Source: Patescibacteria group bacterium (lineage in GTDB: Bacteria; Patescibacteriota; Patescibacteriia; PEXW01). From it: 64,000 nt of DNA. The translations under genes were made by a program, and so were the position numbers. Of the stretch, positions 2,449-44,477 are shown piece by piece. How positions within the stretch are numbered: position 1 is the first letter of the stretch; each line of letters opens with the position of its first letter. The notes beneath the pieces are model-generated. The model made no database searches. It worked only from the letters and a program-made list of their open reading frames with translations, and was not told the DNA's origin. The stretch covers positions 73,978 through 137,977 of the forward strand of contig JBAZBR010000002.1 in the NCBI GenBank assembly GCA_041671325.1, in the 5' to 3' direction.

Positions 2449-3123
2449 ATGCGTATTTTAGTCATTGAAGACGACCATAAAATTGCCAATGCTATTAAAA
2501 AGGGCTTGGAACAAGAACGCTTTGCCGTGGATGTTTCTTATGATGGTAGGGAAAAGTTGGGTTCAGTATTGCTGAATAAATATGATTTAATTATCTTGGA
2601 TCGGATGTTGCCTGGCACTGATGGTATCAAGATTTGCCAAATGTTAAGGCAGGAAAAGAACAACATTCCAATATTGATTTTGACGGCTAAGGATAAATTA
2701 CGAGATAAAATCGAAGGCTTAAATGCCGGAGCTGATGATTATTTAATTAAGCCTTTTGCTTTTGAGGAGCTTTTAGCCAGGGTTCGGGCTTTGTTAAGAC
2801 GGCCAGAAAAAGCCCTTGATAATATTTTGAAAATCAGTGATTTGGAGCTGAATCGATTGACCTTTGAAGTGAAAAGAAACGGAAGAAAAATTGAATTATC
2901 CAGTAAGGAATTTGCTTTATTGGAATATTTAATGAGGAATCCCGGCCGGATATTGACCAAAGATAATATAATTTCCCATGTTTGGGATTATGATGCGGAT
3001 ATTTTGCCAAATACCGTTGAGGTCTACATTGGCTATTTACGGAATAAAATTGATAAGCCCTTTCCTGACCTTCCGCAATTAATTAAAACCAGCCGAGGTT
3101 TTGGCTATAAGCTTGAAAATTGA
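2449..3123 (+). CDS. OmpR-family two-component response regulator
   Basis: Receiver domain (ILVIEDD, DLIILDRMLPGTDG) plus winged-helix C-terminus (GYKLEN end typical of OmpR family). Confidence 0.9.
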   Translation: MRILVIEDDHKIANAIKKGLEQERFAVDVSYDGREKLGSVLLNKYDLIILDRMLPGTDGIKICQMLRQEKNNIPILILTAKDKLRDKIEGLNAGADDYLIKPFAFEELLARVRALLRRPEKALDNILKISDLELNRLTFEVKRNGRKIELSSKEFALLEYLMRNPGRILTKDNIISHVWDYDADILPNTVEVYIGYLRNKIDKPFPDLPQLIKTSRGFGYKLEN

Positions 3124-3127
3124 AAAT

Positions 3128-4162
3128 ATGCATTTCTACAAGATGAAAATTAATTTAACTTATTTAAAGTTATCCTCATTTTACGTTTTGATTATCATGT
3201 TAATCAGCGCGTCTTTTAGTCTTGCGATTTTTAAAATATCATCAAATGAGCTAAATCGCGGTTTGGATCGGCAAGCTGGAGTATTTAGAGGTTTGCCACC
3301 AGGCAGCTTTTTAACAAACCCCTTCCAAGACATGGAAAATATTCGTATCCAACAATTGCACGAAAGCAACGATAAATTAAAGCTTAATTTATTATATTTT
3401 AACCTGTTAATTTTAGCCCTTTCTTCTGGTCTAAGTTATTTTTGGGCCAGACGAACCATGAGACCAATTGAAGAGGCTATGGAATCGCAAAACCGTTTTA
3501 CAGCTGATGCTTCACATGAATTGCGGACGCCTTTAACTGCCATGCGCACGGAAATTGAAGTCAATCTTCGTAATGGCGAACTCAGCTCTCACGAGGCTAA
3601 AAAGTTATTAGCTAGCAACTTAGAGGAAATCAGTAAGCTTGAGACCCTTTCCAGTGCACTTTTAAAACTTGCCAACCAAAATGGGCAAGTCAATTTTGAG
3701 TTTGGCAAGGTGTCTGTGGAAGAAGTTATTGCCGAAGCATATTCGAAGATTGAAAGTTTAGCCAAGAAAAAGTTAATTGAGTTTGAAAATAGCTTTCAGA
3801 ATTTATTTGTGAGGGGTGATAAAGCAGGATTAACTGAATTATTTATCATTTTATTAGATAACGCCATTAAATATAGTCAGGAAAAATCAAAAATTTTTAT
3901 TATAATAGAAGAGGAAAAAGACCAAGCAATAATCAAAATTAAAGACCAAGGTATTGGCATCAAGGCTTCTGATTTGCCATATATTTTTAACCGTTTTTAC
4001 CGAGCTGATACTTCGCGCTCAAAGAATAAAGTAGACGGTTATGGCCTAGGGCTTTCTATCGCTAAAAGAATTGCGGAAATGCATAAAGGAAAAATTTCAG
4101 TTGAGAGCCAGGTTGGCCAAGGTTCGACTTTTACCATAGAAATTCCTTTAGTACACAATTAA
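3128..4162 (+). CDS. Sensor histidine kinase (two TM segments, short extracytoplasmic loop, HisKA + HATPase_c)
   Basis: H-box FTADASHELRTPLTAM; G-boxes DQGIGI, GYGLGLSIAKRI; start chosen at ATG 3128 just after the RR stop (the track ORF starts at 3101 overlapping the RR). Confidence 0.85.
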   Translation: MHFYKMKINLTYLKLSSFYVLIIMLISASFSLAIFKISSNELNRGLDRQAGVFRGLPPGSFLTNPFQDMENIRIQQLHESNDKLKLNLLYFNLLILALSSGLSYFWARRTMRPIEEAMESQNRFTADASHELRTPLTAMRTEIEVNLRNGELSSHEAKKLLASNLEEISKLETLSSALLKLANQNGQVNFEFGKVSVEEVIAEAYSKIESLAKKKLIEFENSFQNLFVRGDKAGLTELFIILLDNAIKYSQEKSKIFIIIEEEKDQAIIKIKDQGIGIKASDLPYIFNRFYRADTSRSKNKVDGYGLGLSIAKRIAEMHKGKISVESQVGQGSTFTIEIPLVHN

Positions 4163-4225
4163 GCTTATTCTAAGCTAAAAGATTTAAAATTTAATTAGTA
4201 TTGAATTGTTAATTAGTATCAAAAT

Positions 4226-5557
4226 ATGAGTGTATTAAATCGGGGTATAAAAAACGCTTTTAGAAACAACATCCGAACAGCTTCAATAACTTTGATTTTG
4301 GGCATTGCTATTGCTTTAAGTTTAATCATGTTGTTATCTCTAAAAACCGTTCAAGCTAGGATTGAAAATGTGAAAAGCAGTATAGGGAATACAATCGCGG
4401 TTACGCCTGCCGGGATTCGTGGTTTTGAGGGTGGCGGAGAATTATTATCTAAAACAGACGTAGAAAATTTAGCTTCAATACCAAATATCAAGAAAATTTC
4501 ACAGACCCTAAGTGACCGTTTGGAAAGTCAAAATACCAATCTTAAGTCAGCTATTGAGGCCGGAACTTTTGGCAGGCGAATTCAGCAAGAAGCTAATGAT
4601 TTACCTGAACTCCCCAGGGAAATTACCATGCCAATCATGGTCACTGGCACAAATGATTTAACCTCAACTTCAAGTTTGAATGTCAGTAAATTAGACATCA
4701 CTTCTGGGTCCGTCTTTGATGTAAATACCGATCAAAATATTGCGCTTATAGGTACGGATTTAGCTACAAAGAACAACTTAAAAGTTGATTCTACTTTTAA
4801 AGCTTACAATAAAGACATCAAGGTCGTGGGTATTTTTGATGGGGGAAATACTTTTGCCAATGCAACCCTATTTATGCCTCTGAAAGCTCTACAAAATTTA
4901 ACTAGCCAAACTGACCAAATTTCTAACCTAATTGTCCAAACGGATTCGATTGAAAGCGTTGCCAGCGTTGAAACTGCCCTAAAGTCAAAATTGGGCGATA
5001 AAGTTGATATTGTCTCCCAACAAGATTCTTCCGTCCAAGCCATTGAACCTCTACAAAATATTAAAACCATTTCCACCTATAGCCTTATTGGCGCTTTGAT
5101 TGCTGGTTCAGTAATCATTTTTCTAGCTATGTTAATGATTGTCAGAGAAAGACGGAGAGAGATCGGGGTATTAAAAGCCATTGGCTCATCAAATATCAAA
5201 ATTGTTTCGCAGTTTACTGTCGAGGCAATGGTTTTAACCTTAATGAGCAGTGTTATAGGCGTGATTTTGGGTTTTATTTTCAGTAATCCAGTCTTGAATA
5301 TGTTGGTGACAAATAGTCAAAGCAATCCTACTTCAGTAAGCGCTTCAGGTCGTGGATTTGGCGGTGCCGTAATGAGGATAGGGGGAGGCGTAATGCCAGG
5401 AATCCAAAATACCCTAAGGGACATTCATGCGGTAGTTGGTTATGACATAATCCTTTATGGTTTACTAGCGGCGATTTTGATTGCCATAATTGGCAGCGCA
5501 ATTCCAGCCTTTTTTATCGCCAAAATCCGGCCAGCCGAAGTAATGCGTTCTGAATAA
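4226..5557 (+). CDS. ABC transporter permease, FtsX/MacB-type (N-terminal TM, large extracytoplasmic domain, 3 C-terminal TM)
   Basis: FtsX-like region IGVLKAIGSSNIKIVSQFTVEAM; topology by hydrophobicity. Confidence 0.8.
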   Translation: MSVLNRGIKNAFRNNIRTASITLILGIAIALSLIMLLSLKTVQARIENVKSSIGNTIAVTPAGIRGFEGGGELLSKTDVENLASIPNIKKISQTLSDRLESQNTNLKSAIEAGTFGRRIQQEANDLPELPREITMPIMVTGTNDLTSTSSLNVSKLDITSGSVFDVNTDQNIALIGTDLATKNNLKVDSTFKAYNKDIKVVGIFDGGNTFANATLFMPLKALQNLTSQTDQISNLIVQTDSIESVASVETALKSKLGDKVDIVSQQDSSVQAIEPLQNIKTISTYSLIGALIAGSVIIFLAMLMIVRERRREIGVLKAIGSSNIKIVSQFTVEAMVLTLMSSVIGVILGFIFSNPVLNMLVTNSQSNPTSVSASGRGFGGAVMRIGGGVMPGIQNTLRDIHAVVGYDIILYGLLAAILIAIIGSAIPAFFIAKIRPAEVMRSE

Positions 5558-9858: not shown

Positions 9859-9977
9859 GTTGACCCCGCACCACTTTCTAAAACAATCCAAATTTTTAAA
9901 TAAATAAAGAGATCAATTCTGGATAAGTATTCAATTAATAATAGGTAAATTTGTATGGAAAGTGGTGCGGGGTTGAC
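9859..9977. repeat. Element with perfect 20-bp terminal inverted repeats (GTTGACCCCGCACCACTTTC ... GAAAGTGGTGCGGGGTTGAC) around an AT-rich 79-nt core; MITE-like or structured RNA
   Basis: Exact reverse-complement arms at 9859-9878 and 9958-9977; a second copy with near-identical arms at 29115-29229. Confidence 0.7.
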
Positions 9978-10001
9978 AGGCGCGGGCTTCCGTGTTATTT
10001 T
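9973..10001 (+). promoter_or_regulatory. Candidate str-operon promoter TTGACA-N17-TATTTT embedded in the right arm of the IR element
   Basis: TTGACA at 9973 with a 17-nt spacer, ~90 nt upstream of rpsL. Confidence 0.35.
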
Positions 10002-10509: not shown

Positions 10510-10974
10510 ATGCACGGAAAGCAAGCTAAAAAAAGAATAATCAAACCGGATACCAAGTATAAAAGCGTGGCGATTGCAAAGTTTATCAATTACGTTATGG
10601 AGCGTGGTAAAAAATCAGTTGCCCAGAAAATCGTTTACAGCGCTTTGGATTTGGTGGCTGAAAAGACCGGCAAAAAGCCTTTGGATGCTTTTGAATTAGC
10701 CATCAGGAATGTTTCTCCAGTGGTGGAAGTCAAGTCCCGCCGGGTGGGCGGTGCCAATTACCAGGTGCCAATTGAGGTTCGGGGCGAAAGGAAAATGGCC
10801 TTGGCTTATCGCTGGCTTTTGGAAGCCGCCCGGAACAAAAAGGGCAAACCCATGCATGAAAAATTAGCGACGGAAATTATCGGTTCAATCAATAACGAAG
10901 GCGATGCGATCAAGAAAAAACAGGATGTCCATCGCATGGCAGAGGCAAATAGGGCTTTTGCACACTTCGCTTAG
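10510..10974 (+). CDS. rpsG: 30S ribosomal protein S7
   Basis: Conserved S7 sequence, position in the str operon. Confidence 0.95.
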
Positions 10975-10997
10975 ACCTTGGATTACGAAATACGAAT

Positions 10998-11426
10998 TTG
11001 AGTACGAATGTGCGAAATACGAATAAATCAAAGTCAAAGCTCTGGCGAAAGGATCTTGTTTACCCAGAACTAAGTTATCAGATCGTTGGCATTCTTTTTG
11101 AAGTTTATAATCAACTAGGATCAGGTTTCCCCGAAAAAGTATATCAGCGGGCAGTTGCTCAGAGGTTGCGGCAGATTCGCATATCATTCTCTGAACAAGT
11201 GCCGGCAAATGTACTTGATCAAGGTGAAGTTCTCGGTCGCTATTTCCTTGATTTCCTGATTGAATACAAATTAGTTTTAGAACTAAAACGCAATAGCCGC
11301 GCACCACTAAAAGATATGCAACAAGTTTTAGGTTATTTAAAAGCGACTGGATTGCAACTAGGAATTCTTGCTGATTTTACCAGTCATGGCGTTCAGTATA
11401 GACGTATTTTGAATCTTCATTCGTAA
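10998..11426 (+). CDS. GxxExxY-family protein (PD-(D/E)xK-like), inserted between rpsG and fusA
   Basis: LSYQIVGILFEVYNQLGSGFPEKVYQRAVAQRL...LDFLIEYKLVLELK...QVLGYLKATGLQLGILADF matches the GxxExxY family; the N-terminal ~15 aa are encoded by the TACGAA repeat and the true start may be internal. Confidence 0.7.
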   Translation: MSTNVRNTNKSKSKLWRKDLVYPELSYQIVGILFEVYNQLGSGFPEKVYQRAVAQRLRQIRISFSEQVPANVLDQGEVLGRYFLDFLIEYKLVLELKRNSRAPLKDMQQVLGYLKATGLQLGILADFTSHGVQYRRILNLHS

Positions 11427-11463
11427 TTAGTATTTTCGTATCCTTTTTCGTAATTCGTAATTT

Positions 11464-13539
11464 ATGCCAAGAGAGTATTCATTAGAAGATACCAGAAATA
11501 TTGGGATTATTGCCCATATTGATGCGGGAAAAACCACTGTTTCCGAGCGGATTTTGTTTTATACCGGCAAAAAGCACAAGATTGGCGAAGTTCATGAAGG
11601 GGAAGCGGAAATGGATTGGATGGAGCAAGAAAAGGAACGCGGTATTACCATCACCGCAGCGGCCACTACTTGTTTTTGGAAAAACAAGCGCATCAACCTT
11701 ATTGACACCCCAGGCCACATAGATTTTACGGTTGAGGTCCAGCGCTCTTTGCGGGTTCTCGACGGCGGTGTAGTAGTTTTTGACGGCGTGGCCGGCGTGG
11801 AATCTCAGTCCGAAACTGTTTGGCACCAGGCTGAAAAATTCGGCGTGCCCAGAATTTGTTTTATTAATAAAATGGACCGCATGGGTGCAGATTTTTACTA
11901 TGACATTAAAAGCATTCACGAACGTTTAACTACCCGCGCGCATCCTCTGCAACTGCCAATTGGTGCGGCCGAGACTTTCAAAGGCATAATTGATTTGTTT
12001 GAACGCAAAGCTTTTATTTATAACGATGATCTGGGCAAAGAACTTCAGGTCATTGAAGTGCCAGCAGACATGAAAGAAAAAGTTGAAGACTATCGGCACC
12101 AATTAATTGAAGCCATTGTCGAACAGGATGAAAAACTCCTGAATCAATACTTAGAAGGCAAAGAGCCTTCATTGGAAGACTTGAAAAAAGTTTTAAGGCA
12201 AGCCTGCATCAAGAATGAAATTGTGCCAATTCTTTGCGGTTCGGCTTTGAAAAATAAAGGCGTGCAGTTTTTACTCGATGCGGTTGTTGAATATTTGCCA
12301 AATCCATTGGAAATCCCTCCGACTAAAGGCAAAGACCCAAAAACCGAAGCTGAAATTATTTGCGAACCAAGCGATGAACAACCTTTTGCCGCTTTAGTCT
12401 TCAAAATAGCCGCTGATCCTTTTGTTGGTAAACTGGCCTTTTTCCGGGTTTACTCCGGATCTTTAAACGCTGGTTCTTACGTGATTAACACCTCGACTGG
12501 TGAAAAAGAGCGTATTGGCAGAATTATCCGTTTGCATGCCAACCACCGAGAAGACATGGAAGCAGTTTATGCTGGAGAAATTGCTGCAGCCGTAGGCTTG
12601 AAAAGCACTTTCACCGGCCAGACAATTTGCGATCCAGCCAGGCCGATTGTTTTGGAAAGCATTACCTTCCCAGCGCCAGTCATTGACCTGGCCATTGAAC
12701 CAAAAACCAAGGCTGACCAGGAAAAGATGGGTTTTGCCATCCAAAGATTAGCAGAAGAAGACCCGACTTTCCGGGTTAAATTTGATGATGAAACCAACCA
12801 GACTATAATTTCCGGCATGGGTGAATTACATTTGGATATTATTGTTGATCGGATGAAACGAGAATTTAAAGTTGAAGCTAATGTCGGCAAACCCCAAGTC
12901 GCTTATAAAGAGACCATTACCGGCGAAGCGGAAGGCGAAGGCAAATACATTCGCCAGACTGGTGGCCGCGGTCAATATGGGCATTGCTGGGTCAAAGTGA
13001 AACCCCAGGAGCGCGGCAAGGGCTACGAATTTGTGGATGAAGTGAAAGGCGGCGCCATCCCGCGTGAATTCATCCAACCAATCAACAAAGGCATAAAAGA
13101 AGCTTTAGACAAAGGCATAATTGCCGGCTACCCCGTAATCGATATGCAGGTTACGGTATATGACGGCACTTACCACGATGTTGATTCTTCGGAAATGGCT
13201 TTTAAAATTGCCGGTTCCATGGCTGTGCAAGCCGCGGTAAAAAGGGCTAAGCCGGTTTTACTTGAACCAATCATGAAAATAGAAGTTGTTACCCCTGAAT
13301 TATTTATGGGGGATGTAATTGGGGATTTGAATTCCAAGCGGGCGCAAATTAAAGAAATGCGGGATCGGGGCAATATGAAAGTAATCGATGCAACCGTACC
13401 TTTGGCGGAGATGTTTGGCTACGCAACTGCCTTAAGATCCATGACCCAGGGCCGAGCCTCATATTCCATGGAATTTTCGAATTATGCGGAAGTGCCTAGG
13501 AATGTGACTGAAGGCATTATCGCCAAAGCTAAAGAGTAA
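11464..13539 (+). CDS. fusA: Elongation factor G
   Basis: [17 protein letters not shown], full-length EF-G. Confidence 0.97.
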
Positions 13540-43391: not shown

Positions 43392-44477
43392 ATGAAAAAC
43401 CCCAAAGGTTTTCTCCCCATCGCCGCAATTATTATAATCATAGTGGTTGCTGCCCTCGCCGCAGGCGGTTCTTACTATTACACAAAGACCCTGAATAAAA
43501 ACACTAATACCGTGTTAAATACCAATATTGCGGTGGTGAATGAAAATACTAATGCGGTTGTTAATACAAATACAACAGTTGTAAATGGAAATACAAACGT
43601 AACCATGAATTCAAACGGCAATTTGAATACCAATACTGTGGTCGTCAACTCAAACACTAATGTCGTGGTTAATTCAAATACAAATTCTGATGTAACCGCT
43701 GGGTGGAAGACATATACAAGCACAAAATATGGTTTTTCTCTGAAATATCCTCTAACCATGCGTGTTTTAGAGGTAAACGAAACGAGTGGAATAATCCTTA
43801 GGGTAGGTGTTGAGGGGTCGGCAAATGGGGATAATGTTTTGGTTTATAATAAAAGTTCAAATGCTGGAATTCCTTATAGCACAGTTAAATCAGAAAGTGG
43901 TAAGTCTTTCGTTATTTCTCATGTTGGCGTTGAGGCCGATCAAATTCTTTCCACCTTTGTTTTCCTCGATCAAACCGCTGGGTGGAAGACGTATACAAAT
44001 TCTGAATATGGTTGGACTATGAAATATCCGAATGATTGGACGGTCAATAATTCTTATCAGACAACAGATCCGAATGACATTTTTGAAACCCCGATTCGCA
44101 CAACGACTTTCACAAATCCCAACAAGTATTACAGGTTGCTTGTCGGGATAAAAAAGAAAACCGATTCCGGTAGTATTGTCCCACGGACTGGGATTGGAGC
44201 GGGAGAATTTATAAAAGGCGATACAGTTTTAATTGGTAGCACTTCAATGACTTTATGGAATTTAAATTATAATAATTTGACTTCTGAGATTTTTAATTAC
44301 AATCCAAGTACAAATTCCAATTTTGAAATTAGCAATTTTCAATTTATTGCATATTTCGATTGTGGTACAGCAGCAACCATAGAAACAATAAAGCGTTGCG
44401 ATCAAACAAATTTATCAGTAATACCAGAATATAAAACTTTTAAACTTATTCTTGGTTCATTAGTATTGCCTAATTAA
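43392..44477 (+). CDS. Paralog 3; two WKTYT-x-YG-x-KYP repeats
   Basis: Start at MKNPKGF (the track ORF begins 39 nt upstream). Confidence 0.75.
   Translation: MKNPKGFLPIAAIIIIIVVAALAAGGSYYYTKTLNKNTNTVLNTNIAVVNENTNAVVNTNTTVVNGNTNVTMNSNGNLNTNTVVVNSNTNVVVNSNTNSDVTAGWKTYTSTKYGFSLKYPLTMRVLEVNETSGIILRVGVEGSANGDNVLVYNKSSNAGIPYSTVKSESGKSFVISHVGVEADQILSTFVFLDQTAGWKTYTNSEYGWTMKYPNDWTVNNSYQTTDPNDIFETPIRTTTFTNPNKYYRLLVGIKKKTDSGSIVPRTGIGAGEFIKGDTVLIGSTSMTLWNLNYNNLTSEIFNYNPSTNSNFEISNFQFIAYFDCGTAATIETIKRCDQTNLSVIPEYKTFKLILGSLVLPN

Follow-up and report, generated by a model that had tools for sequence, protein, structure and literature searches.

The DNA analysed here is a stretch of 64,000 nucleotides from a Patescibacteria group bacterium (GenBank assembly GCA_041671325.1, contig JBAZBR010000002.1, positions 73,978 to 137,977 of the forward strand), referred to as the window and numbered from its first letter. 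The spacer between the rpsG and fusA genes of its str operon probably holds a mobile selfish nuclease cassette, composed of a gene of the GxxExxY family and two inverted arrays of TACGAA units, hereafter the arms. As far as sequence comparison can tell, arms and gene travel as one unit, related Patescibacteria exchange the cassette horizontally at the same rpsG-fusA junction, and it can both relocate to other spacers and leave behind hairpin copies devoid of the open reading frame (ORF). Homing by break repair, the specific step by which it would spread, is proposed with slightly less than even confidence, and the nuclease's mode of action, like the function of the arms, is what we infer from the evidence below. 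The features on which the analysis is based are the following.

10998 to 11426, plus strand: GxxExxY / PD-(D/E)XK nuclease ORF, 142 aa from the TTG at 10998, or 138 aa from the GTG at 11010, as in public records
10982 to 11027, plus strand: left arm, with TACGAA units at 10984, 10991, 11003 and 11018 and a degenerate TGCGAA at 11011
11416 to 11461, minus strand: right arm, the left arm inverted, with TTCGTA units at 11420, 11435, 11447 and 11454 and a degenerate TTAGTA at 11427
10510 to 10974, plus strand: rpsG (ribosomal protein S7; PF00177, E 5.8e-60), the upstream host gene
11464 to 13539, plus strand: fusA (elongation factor G, EF-G; Pfam EF-G domains), the downstream host gene

The str operon has the order rpsL-rpsG-fusA-tuf on the plus strand, and positions 10975 to 11463 are its complete rpsG-fusA spacer and nothing beyond. 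The rpsG stop codon (TAG, 10972 to 10974) is separated from the left arm by 7 nt, and the right arm ends 2 nt before the fusA ATG, a stretch in which no Shine-Dalgarno-like sequence was found. Neither a promoter-like nor a terminator-like site was found in the cassette interior.

An earlier note on this DNA, made from the sequence alone, had described inverted TACGAA/TTCGTA blocks on both sides of the gene. These are indeed two arms of 46 nt each, 74% complementary in a repeat search, which makes them terminal inverted repeats in the sense used for terminal inverted repeat (TIR) elements, and the spacings of their units are mirror images (7, 12 and 15 against 15, 12 and 7). Arms and gene interlock: both candidate starts of the nuclease, TTG 10998 and GTG 11010, lie inside the left arm, and its stop codon (TAA, 11424 to 11426) falls within the right arm, in that arm's first unit. 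The earlier note also held that about 15 codons of the ORF consist of the repeat; the overlap is real, but the count is lower, with 6 to 10 codons inside the left arm. TACGAA occurs 32 times in the 64 kb, and the only cluster is formed by the eight hexamers of the cassette arms. When the flanks of the 74 gene-like ORFs of the window were scored for inverted repeats, the cassette ORF had the highest score (45, with the next at 30 and a median of 19), above all 375 shuffled flanks, and no comparable inverted repeat surrounds any other gene of the window. The earlier note had allowed that the repeats might be a general low-complexity feature of intergenic DNA in this genome, which they are not, since they are specific to the cassette.

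The nuclease gene, placed between rpsG and fusA by its coordinates, was identified as GxxExxY by two hidden Markov models, TIGR04256 (GxxExxY; E 3e-28, 98.4 bits, cut-off 35) and PF13366 (PDDEXK_3; E 1e-27, 97.1 bits, cut-off 22), in agreement with the earlier note. PF13366 is the single Pfam match of this protein of about 130 aa, which has no additional domain. Either of the two start codons, TTG or GTG, may be the true one; residues are numbered here according to the 138-aa form (GTG start), and the conserved domain begins at a tryptophan encoded at 11043. Repeat-derived N-terminal extensions of called proteins ('...NTNLRI...', 'YELRITN') are probably not translated. The GxxExxY motif reads G39-F-P-E42-K-V-Y45 (11124 to 11144), and the catalytic residues are D81 (at 11250), E91 (11280) and K93 (11286), such that the D...ExK set is complete. 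In an alignment of 43 homologues with 44-86% identity, Y23, G27, E42, Y45, D81, F82, E91, K93, Q105 and Y109 are invariant, and G39 is at least 90% conserved. An AlphaFold2 (AF2) model with a mean predicted local distance difference test (pLDDT) of 88.8 and a predicted TM-score (pTM) of 0.80 has the order helix-helix-3 strands-helix-2 strands. Its top Foldseek matches, with TM-scores of about 0.5 or below, are PD-(D/E)XK nucleases, including Cas4 SSO0001 (4ic1, E 7e-5), lambda exonuclease, 3ijm (restriction-endonuclease-like, from Spirosoma), tRNA-splicing endonucleases and Hjc, while the I-Bth0305I catalytic domain is matched weakly (E 0.045). Alignment, model and Foldseek matches thus bear out the nuclease fold and catalytic residues that the earlier note expected; the matches settle the PD-(D/E)XK fold, not the substrate. 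Given that the ratio of nonsynonymous to synonymous divergence (dN/dS) is 0.06-0.10 among three orthologous cassettes (the window, L001 and L002; L and P numbers are our handles for loci and proteins), the protein is maintained by selection.

The family search returned 311 proteins of the GxxExxY/PDDEXK_3 family at E <= 1e-3; the family is present in several phyla. One GxxExxY protein, 57% identical (P0016), carries the source label 'Candidatus Pacearchaeota archaeon', i.e., DPANN archaea, which reflects either cross-domain transfer or misbinning.

The architecture of the window cassette recurs throughout the family. A total of 75 unique loci, obtained from a metagenome scan together with earlier homologous loci, were examined by locally aligning the upstream flank of each gene against the reverse complement of its downstream flank. 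The median inverted-flank score was 50, in comparison with 19 for shuffled flanks, 20 for the direct orientation and 31 when partners were swapped between loci, and 95% of the loci scored above the 95th percentile of shuffled flanks. The median arm is 40 nt long, with identities of 82-85%, and near-perfect arms of 54 nt are reached in L003. Where TACGAA is lacking, a locus has a variant unit, invariably the same one in its two arms (TACTAA/TTAGTA, TACAAA/TTTGTA, TCTCTAAT/ATTAGAGA, CACGAAT/ATTCGTG or TACGGA/TCCGTA), and the outermost units often have complementary extensions, such as GGCTAC...GTAGCC and CCCTAC...GTAGGG. Bracketed homologues occupy varied sites, e.g., behind a 2023-aa ORF in a Taylorbacteria metagenome-assembled genome (MAG), with an RNase H-like gene on one side and lgt on the other in Doudnabacteria, and, in a further case, with lemA and an M48 peptidase gene as the two neighbours. 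Distant members from other phyla (31-33% identity) present the same plan with different units: inverted CACAGAGGA-type 9-mers in Bacteroides finegoldii, a hairpin of three CGCGGAT units in Gemmatirosa, and an inverted pair of ACACGGATTCG in Treponema. Hence TACGAA is rejected as a universal recognition motif of the family.

Within 417 kb of family loci, 113 of 140 arrays lie at most 150 nt from the end of a GxxExxY ORF. The remaining arrays are mostly hairpins that lack an ORF, in which a short loop separates two arms; they lie in different spacers of these contigs, and their arms resemble those of the local cassette (L284 2991-3060 and 3722-3791; L227 3280-3354). Multiple copies, ORF-less derivatives included, are found on the related contigs L284, L227, L213 and L241; the window has one copy. 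Apparent exceptions with directly oriented arrays are explained by an extra array: in L223 (3390-3490) and L227, in L008 (960-1103) and in L272, the ORF is followed by a second plus-oriented array and then by the inverted array, which gives the appearance of a hairpin without ORF that is nested within the right arm or adjoins it. Contig L241 carries three tandem GxxExxY cassettes (2260-2643, 3004-3393 and 4114-4500), with units of types TACGGA, TACGAA and TGCGGA/ATGCGAA, respectively. One exception to the family pattern is a distant GxxExxY gene on the Fusobacteria plasmid CP102406.1 (L289 1200-1960), which is flanked, in place of inverted arrays, by three direct copies of a repeat of about 45 nt, AATCAGTGAAAA..CAGA..TAATCCGTG.ACCTA.

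We consider next the evidence for mobility. In the spacing comparison proposed in the earlier note, the following was seen: in the nearest species representatives by S7 (L009, L010, L013 and L014; 74-65% identity), the rpsG-fusA spacer has 75-101 bp and no gene. Presence and absence also occur where S7 does not differ at all: protein P0123, which shares 84% identity with the S7 of the window, is encoded on L294 and L295 alike, of which the former carries a cassette and the latter an 85-nt spacer in its place. The flanks of this pair are 99% identical, with 10 of 678 nt differing upstream and 1 of 537 downstream; in this one pair, six of the ten upstream differences are concentrated in the final 16 nt of rpsG, adjoining the cassette. 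The 85-nt spacer of L295 is replaced rather than interrupted in L294, and the polymorphism has the look of an allele exchanged by recombination, not of a simple insertion. The filled and the empty strain both carry, immediately upstream of the real fusA, a pseudo-copy (78 nt) of the 5' end of fusA with a GC hairpin behind it (L294 3452-3583; L295 760-891), which may be the scar of an earlier recombination at the junction. L296 and L297 provide a second filled/empty pair.

Similarities of host and cassette are incongruent. The window and L294 share 84% identity in S7 and 53% in the nuclease, whereas the window and L001 share 75% in S7 and 87% in the nuclease. Among the window, L001 and L002, synonymous divergence (pS) is 0.41 and 0.63 for the nuclease, against 0.79-0.89, which is saturated, for rpsG and fusA; the non-coding arms show identities of 89-100%, the left arm being identical in L002 and 93% identical in L001. 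The cassettes of L223 and L227, arms included, are 99% identical, while the adjoining hydrogenase gene is about 72% identical (66-78% per 50-nt window).

Relocation is seen in L255 and L275, two genomes about 90% identical whose cassettes, 93-95% identical, lie in different adjacent spacers: between segments B and C in L255, and between segments A and B in L275. The empty A|B site reads cagaTAATGaag, and the filled one cagaTAA[CCCTACGAATTACGAAT...ATTCGTAATTCGTAGGG]atATGaaa; the ends of both copies are perfect 17-nt terminal inverted repeats, CCCTACGAATTACGAAT. The rpsG-fusA junction itself is the site of 10 of the 75 unique cassettes, which are not monophyletic by protein similarity; the protein nearest to that of L209, an rpsG-fusA cassette, is 75% identical and located at another site. 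Absence in relatives, the L294/L295 polymorphism, incongruence and relocation together support the mobile or selfish cassette that the earlier note had suspected.

The mechanism we propose runs as follows. Having no promoter of its own, the cassette would be transcribed by read-through of the str operon. The nuclease would break either the cassette-free allele or a hairpin or cruciform formed by the arms, and homologous recombination in the conserved flanks (the end of rpsG and the start of fusA) with incoming or sister DNA would then copy the cassette in, a process akin to the intron-less homing of free-standing homing endonuclease genes. The repeated use of the rpsG-fusA junction would follow from the high conservation of the rpsG and fusA ends on which recombination draws. 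Pairing of the arms, either within the polycistronic RNA or in single-stranded DNA, would bury the start of the nuclease gene and bring the rpsG stop codon beside the fusA start codon, which may be why an insertion is tolerated in an essential operon. Folding predictions are consistent with such pairing: in the RNA of the 492-nt spacer, the arms form the closing stem in both the minimum free energy (MFE) and the centroid structure (z -3.6), and the arms alone fold at -32 kcal/mol (z -6.4). The arms probably do pair, as RNA or as single-stranded DNA.

Free-standing homing endonuclease genes, such as the seg and mob genes of phage T4, spread by intron-less homing (PMC2988022, PMC2790892). Like them, the cassette nuclease gene is the sole gene of a spacer flanked by conserved genes, differs in presence among close relatives (L294/L295, L296/L297), and reaches the same site in diverged genomes horizontally; the differences clustered beside it in one pair (L294/L295) may be co-converted flanking markers of the kind that such genes leave. 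Unlike them, the cassette has long inverted arrays, ORF-less hairpins and relocation to a new spacer, and, in contrast to the phage T4 genes, its host is a bacterial chromosome. Moreover, six families of homing endonucleases are recognised, whose PD-(D/E)XK example is unrelated in sequence to GxxExxY (PMC6083498), and the cassette nuclease falls outside every one of them.

Several results weigh against the proposed homing cassette. No consistent target-site duplication and no consensus for cleavage or insertion was found among about 60 element ends and the filled and empty sites of L255/L275; the sole regularity is that ends frequently read ATA(A/G)...TAT, overlapping the host stop and start codons. 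The filled/empty pairs carry no direction, and cassette loss or replacement by a foreign spacer would fit them equally well. Cassettes are almost always co-oriented with their neighbours, with (+,+) in 44 cases, (-,+) in 5, (+,-) in 3 and (-,-) in none, which speaks for co-transcription, yet gene order in Patescibacteria is strongly co-directional, so that part of this bias could be survivorship. RNA pairing finds no support in a strand-specific wobble test, in which G:U-type mismatches between the arms number 59 on the sense and 62 on the antisense strand (p 0.86). The arms also match better in unit columns, which were defined on one arm only and then compared with the other arm, than in spacer columns (93.8% versus 77.2%, p 4e-32). 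The window holds no second GxxExxY gene, no PF05635 gene and no ORF-less hairpin. Finally, no characterised member of the GxxExxY family was found: a sequence search of the PDB returned no relative, and the literature gives its function as unknown.

A possible alternative, though on balance an unlikely one, is that the arms are the long stem of an RNA element in the str transcript, cut by RNase III as in the intervening sequences (IVSs) of 23S rRNA. Cutting would release a monocistronic nuclease mRNA and split the rpsL-rpsG transcript from that of fusA-tuf; this is compatible with mobility, and the two readings compete over the role of the arms alone. In its favour, the predicted long-range stem encloses the entire cassette, in many loci the arms directly adjoin the stop codon before them and the start codon after them, and the cassette is strictly co-oriented with the operon. 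ORFs of PF05635 with analogous inverted arrays, moreover, occupy the same rpsG-fusA spacer in L020 and L036. ORF-carrying IVSs with S23p/PF05635 are found in Leptospira and Coxiella, and that of Coxiella is a selfish element with an ORF and a stem processed by RNase III (PMC4990558). The cassette resembles them as a selfish element of about 0.4-0.5 kb whose terminal repeats are the predicted closing stem around a small ORF, and which lies inside a highly expressed essential transcription unit. It differs from them in lying in an operon spacer of mRNA (rpsG-fusA) rather than in an rRNA helix, in encoding a PD-(D/E)XK nuclease rather than a four-helix bundle, and in having arms built as arrays of short units. 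The absence of a sense-strand excess of G:U-compatible mismatches speaks against the IVS-like reading, as does the most frequent type of mismatch between the arms, the A<->T transversion, with which pairing is lost. Units are also conserved beyond what pairing needs, which points to a sequence-specific binder rather than to pure pairing, and a scan of the window against Rfam returned three tRNAs only, with no match in the spacer and no rRNA.

Binding of the units by the nuclease is also what a second alternative supposes, namely that the cassette is a cut-and-paste TIR transposon, with GxxExxY as a transposase-like nuclease that binds subterminal hexamers, and the ORF-less hairpins as its non-autonomous MITEs (transposable elements of the miniature inverted-repeat type). 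We regard this as doubtful. The inverted ends of Ac/Ds, with their hexamers, and of Tn7 carry several short binding motifs at variable spacing, and the cassette is similar to such elements in having ends made of multiple short motifs and in existing in gene-bearing and ORF-less versions. The higher conservation of units than of spacers, unit spacings that peak at 7-8 and 10-11 nt, and perfect or near-perfect terminal repeats in some copies (17 nt in L255/L275; 54 nt in L003) fit this alternative, and so do the relocation between adjacent spacers, the ORF-less copies on the same contigs and the three tandem cassettes of L241. On the other hand, the cassette has no DDE or other known transposase: its single PD-(D/E)XK domain of about 130 aa is not a known transposase class, and we know of no integrase activity for a single-domain PD-(D/E)XK protein of this size. 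It also lacks a detectable target-site duplication at the ends inspected, and its junctions are of the replacement type, with the L294/L295 spacer replaced and flanking bases apparently co-converted, which fits recombination rather than transposition. The wide variation of the unit sequence across the family likewise disfavours it, and favours either recognition of structure or a specificity that co-evolves with the units. RNA stem and nuclease-binding ends are partly compatible accounts of the arms, and both are live alternatives.

The arrangement further recalls repetitive extragenic palindromic (REP) sequences and REP-associated tyrosine transposases (RAYTs), in which one gene is likewise bracketed by an inverted hairpin-forming repeat, with gene-less hairpins in other spacers. 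RAYTs are HUH/Y1 transposases, and REPs number hundreds per genome; the cassette, in contrast, encodes a PD-(D/E)XK protein and has few ORF-less copies per contig and none in the window.

It is very improbable that the gene is a domesticated host gene for repair, RNA processing or defence, with the repeats as operators or other regulatory sites and its presence and absence as ordinary gene loss. The strong purifying selection on the protein and its placement in a highly expressed essential operon would agree with such a role. However, neither the nearest relatives nor a strain with identical S7 have the gene, its similarities are incongruent with those of the host, near-identical cassettes lie inside diverged flanks, its genomic sites vary, and ORF-less repeat hairpins occur at other places; these comparative data largely refute this explanation. 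PADLOC and PHROGs, moreover, returned no match for the nuclease, which leaves a defence or phage origin without support. Chance low-complexity sequence beside an ordinary small gene, which the AT-rich composition of the region (GC 0.34-0.41) might suggest, is refuted by the uniqueness of the cluster in 64 kb, by flank scores above those of all other ORFs and all shuffles, and by the same architecture in 95% of the 75 loci.

In the literature that could be searched, no description was found of GxxExxY as a hairpin-flanked mobile cassette, which is in itself no proof of absence; papers that name GxxExxY or PF13366 deal with neither function nor repeats, the exact repeat strings were not found there either, and a query on Patescibacteria and MITEs returned no relevant match. 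The odd intragenic or intra-operon positions for which the earlier note called the family known could not be confirmed in the same literature. The window cassette is an ordinary member of what appears to be an undescribed variant of selfish nuclease cassettes. More tentatively, GxxExxY proteins as a whole might be the nucleases of unrecognised, phylum-spanning hairpin-loop cassettes, which home to conserved operon junctions, shed ORF-less hairpins, and are tolerated because arm pairing silences the nuclease and keeps translation coupled; cassettes with the PF05635 'IVS protein' or a small GIY-YIG protein would then be parallel cases of the same lifestyle.

These results give GxxExxY/PDDEXK_3, a large family listed as of unknown function, a likely role as the nuclease of a mobile cassette. 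They also suggest that the ultra-small genomes of Patescibacteria tolerate selfish DNA in the str operon, at one of the most conserved gene junctions of bacteria, and that self-pairing arms may be a way for a mobile element to become harmless in an essential operon. Natural filled and empty alleles are at hand in L294/L295, L296/L297 and L255/L275, and a minimal sequence- or structure-specific nuclease with portable recognition arrays could be of practical interest.

The rpsG-fusA junction is unusually permissive in Patescibacteria, and has occupants other than GxxExxY cassettes. In a Yonathbacteria MAG (L020 3965-4431) and in L036 (1184-1724), the spacer holds a 114-aa PF05635 ORF (E 4e-33), with 5-8 tandem GTTCATAAA/GTTTGTAAA 9-mers upstream and an inverted CTTTATAAAC-type array downstream; further PF05635 ORFs with arrays of short units are found in L264 (1828-2220) and L253 (4371-4757). 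A conserved ORF pair without a Pfam family lies in the rpsG-fusA spacer of L012 (3962-5631; 237 and 160 aa) and L015 (3962-5282; 290 and 313 aa), and an alpha/beta hydrolase with an Lnb_N protein in that of L063 (604-2856). The same spacer has a KGG-repeat protein in L016, a 116-aa membrane ORF in L018 and a 67-aa ORF on the opposite strand in L037. Away from this junction, the B|C spacer of L275, where L255 has its GxxExxY cassette, holds a 79-aa GIY-YIG ORF (about 2915-3300; PF01541, E 3e-11) with GC-rich inverted repeats of its own, AACCCAGCCCTTTC.../...GAAAGGGCTGGGTT. Different small nucleases thus appear to use the same site.

TACGAA arrays were also considered as a marker of GxxExxY genes, and rejected: among 80 array loci of IMG/VR, a single one contains the gene, at a distance from the array. 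Plain microsatellites make up many of these loci, those of period 7 or 8, as do short hairpins, some repeated along the contig. Intergenic hairpins of the form (TACGAAT)3-4, a loop of 14-23 nt and (ATTCGTA)3-4 are present in L176 (3652-3720, 4779-4854 and 5924-5991), L186, L153, L105 and L111, which are phage-like contigs with a GC content of 0.41-0.6 and no GxxExxY gene in the stretch fetched. Heptamer arrays of GGAATTA and GGGAATT (L140, L144 and L160) resemble the short tandemly repeated repetitive (STRR) sequences of cyanobacteria.

Two further repeats were observed in the window. Just 5' of rpsL, a 25-nt inverted repeat (9863-9887 and 9949-9973; 84% complementary, 61-nt loop) overlaps both a promoter-like site (9973-10001) and a hairpin of terminator type (9979-9996), and could serve the str operon as a leader or regulatory structure. 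The strongest tandem repeat of the window is a 21-nt repeat, GTTGTAAATACAAATACAACA, present in 1.9 copies at 43557-43596 with a score of 59.

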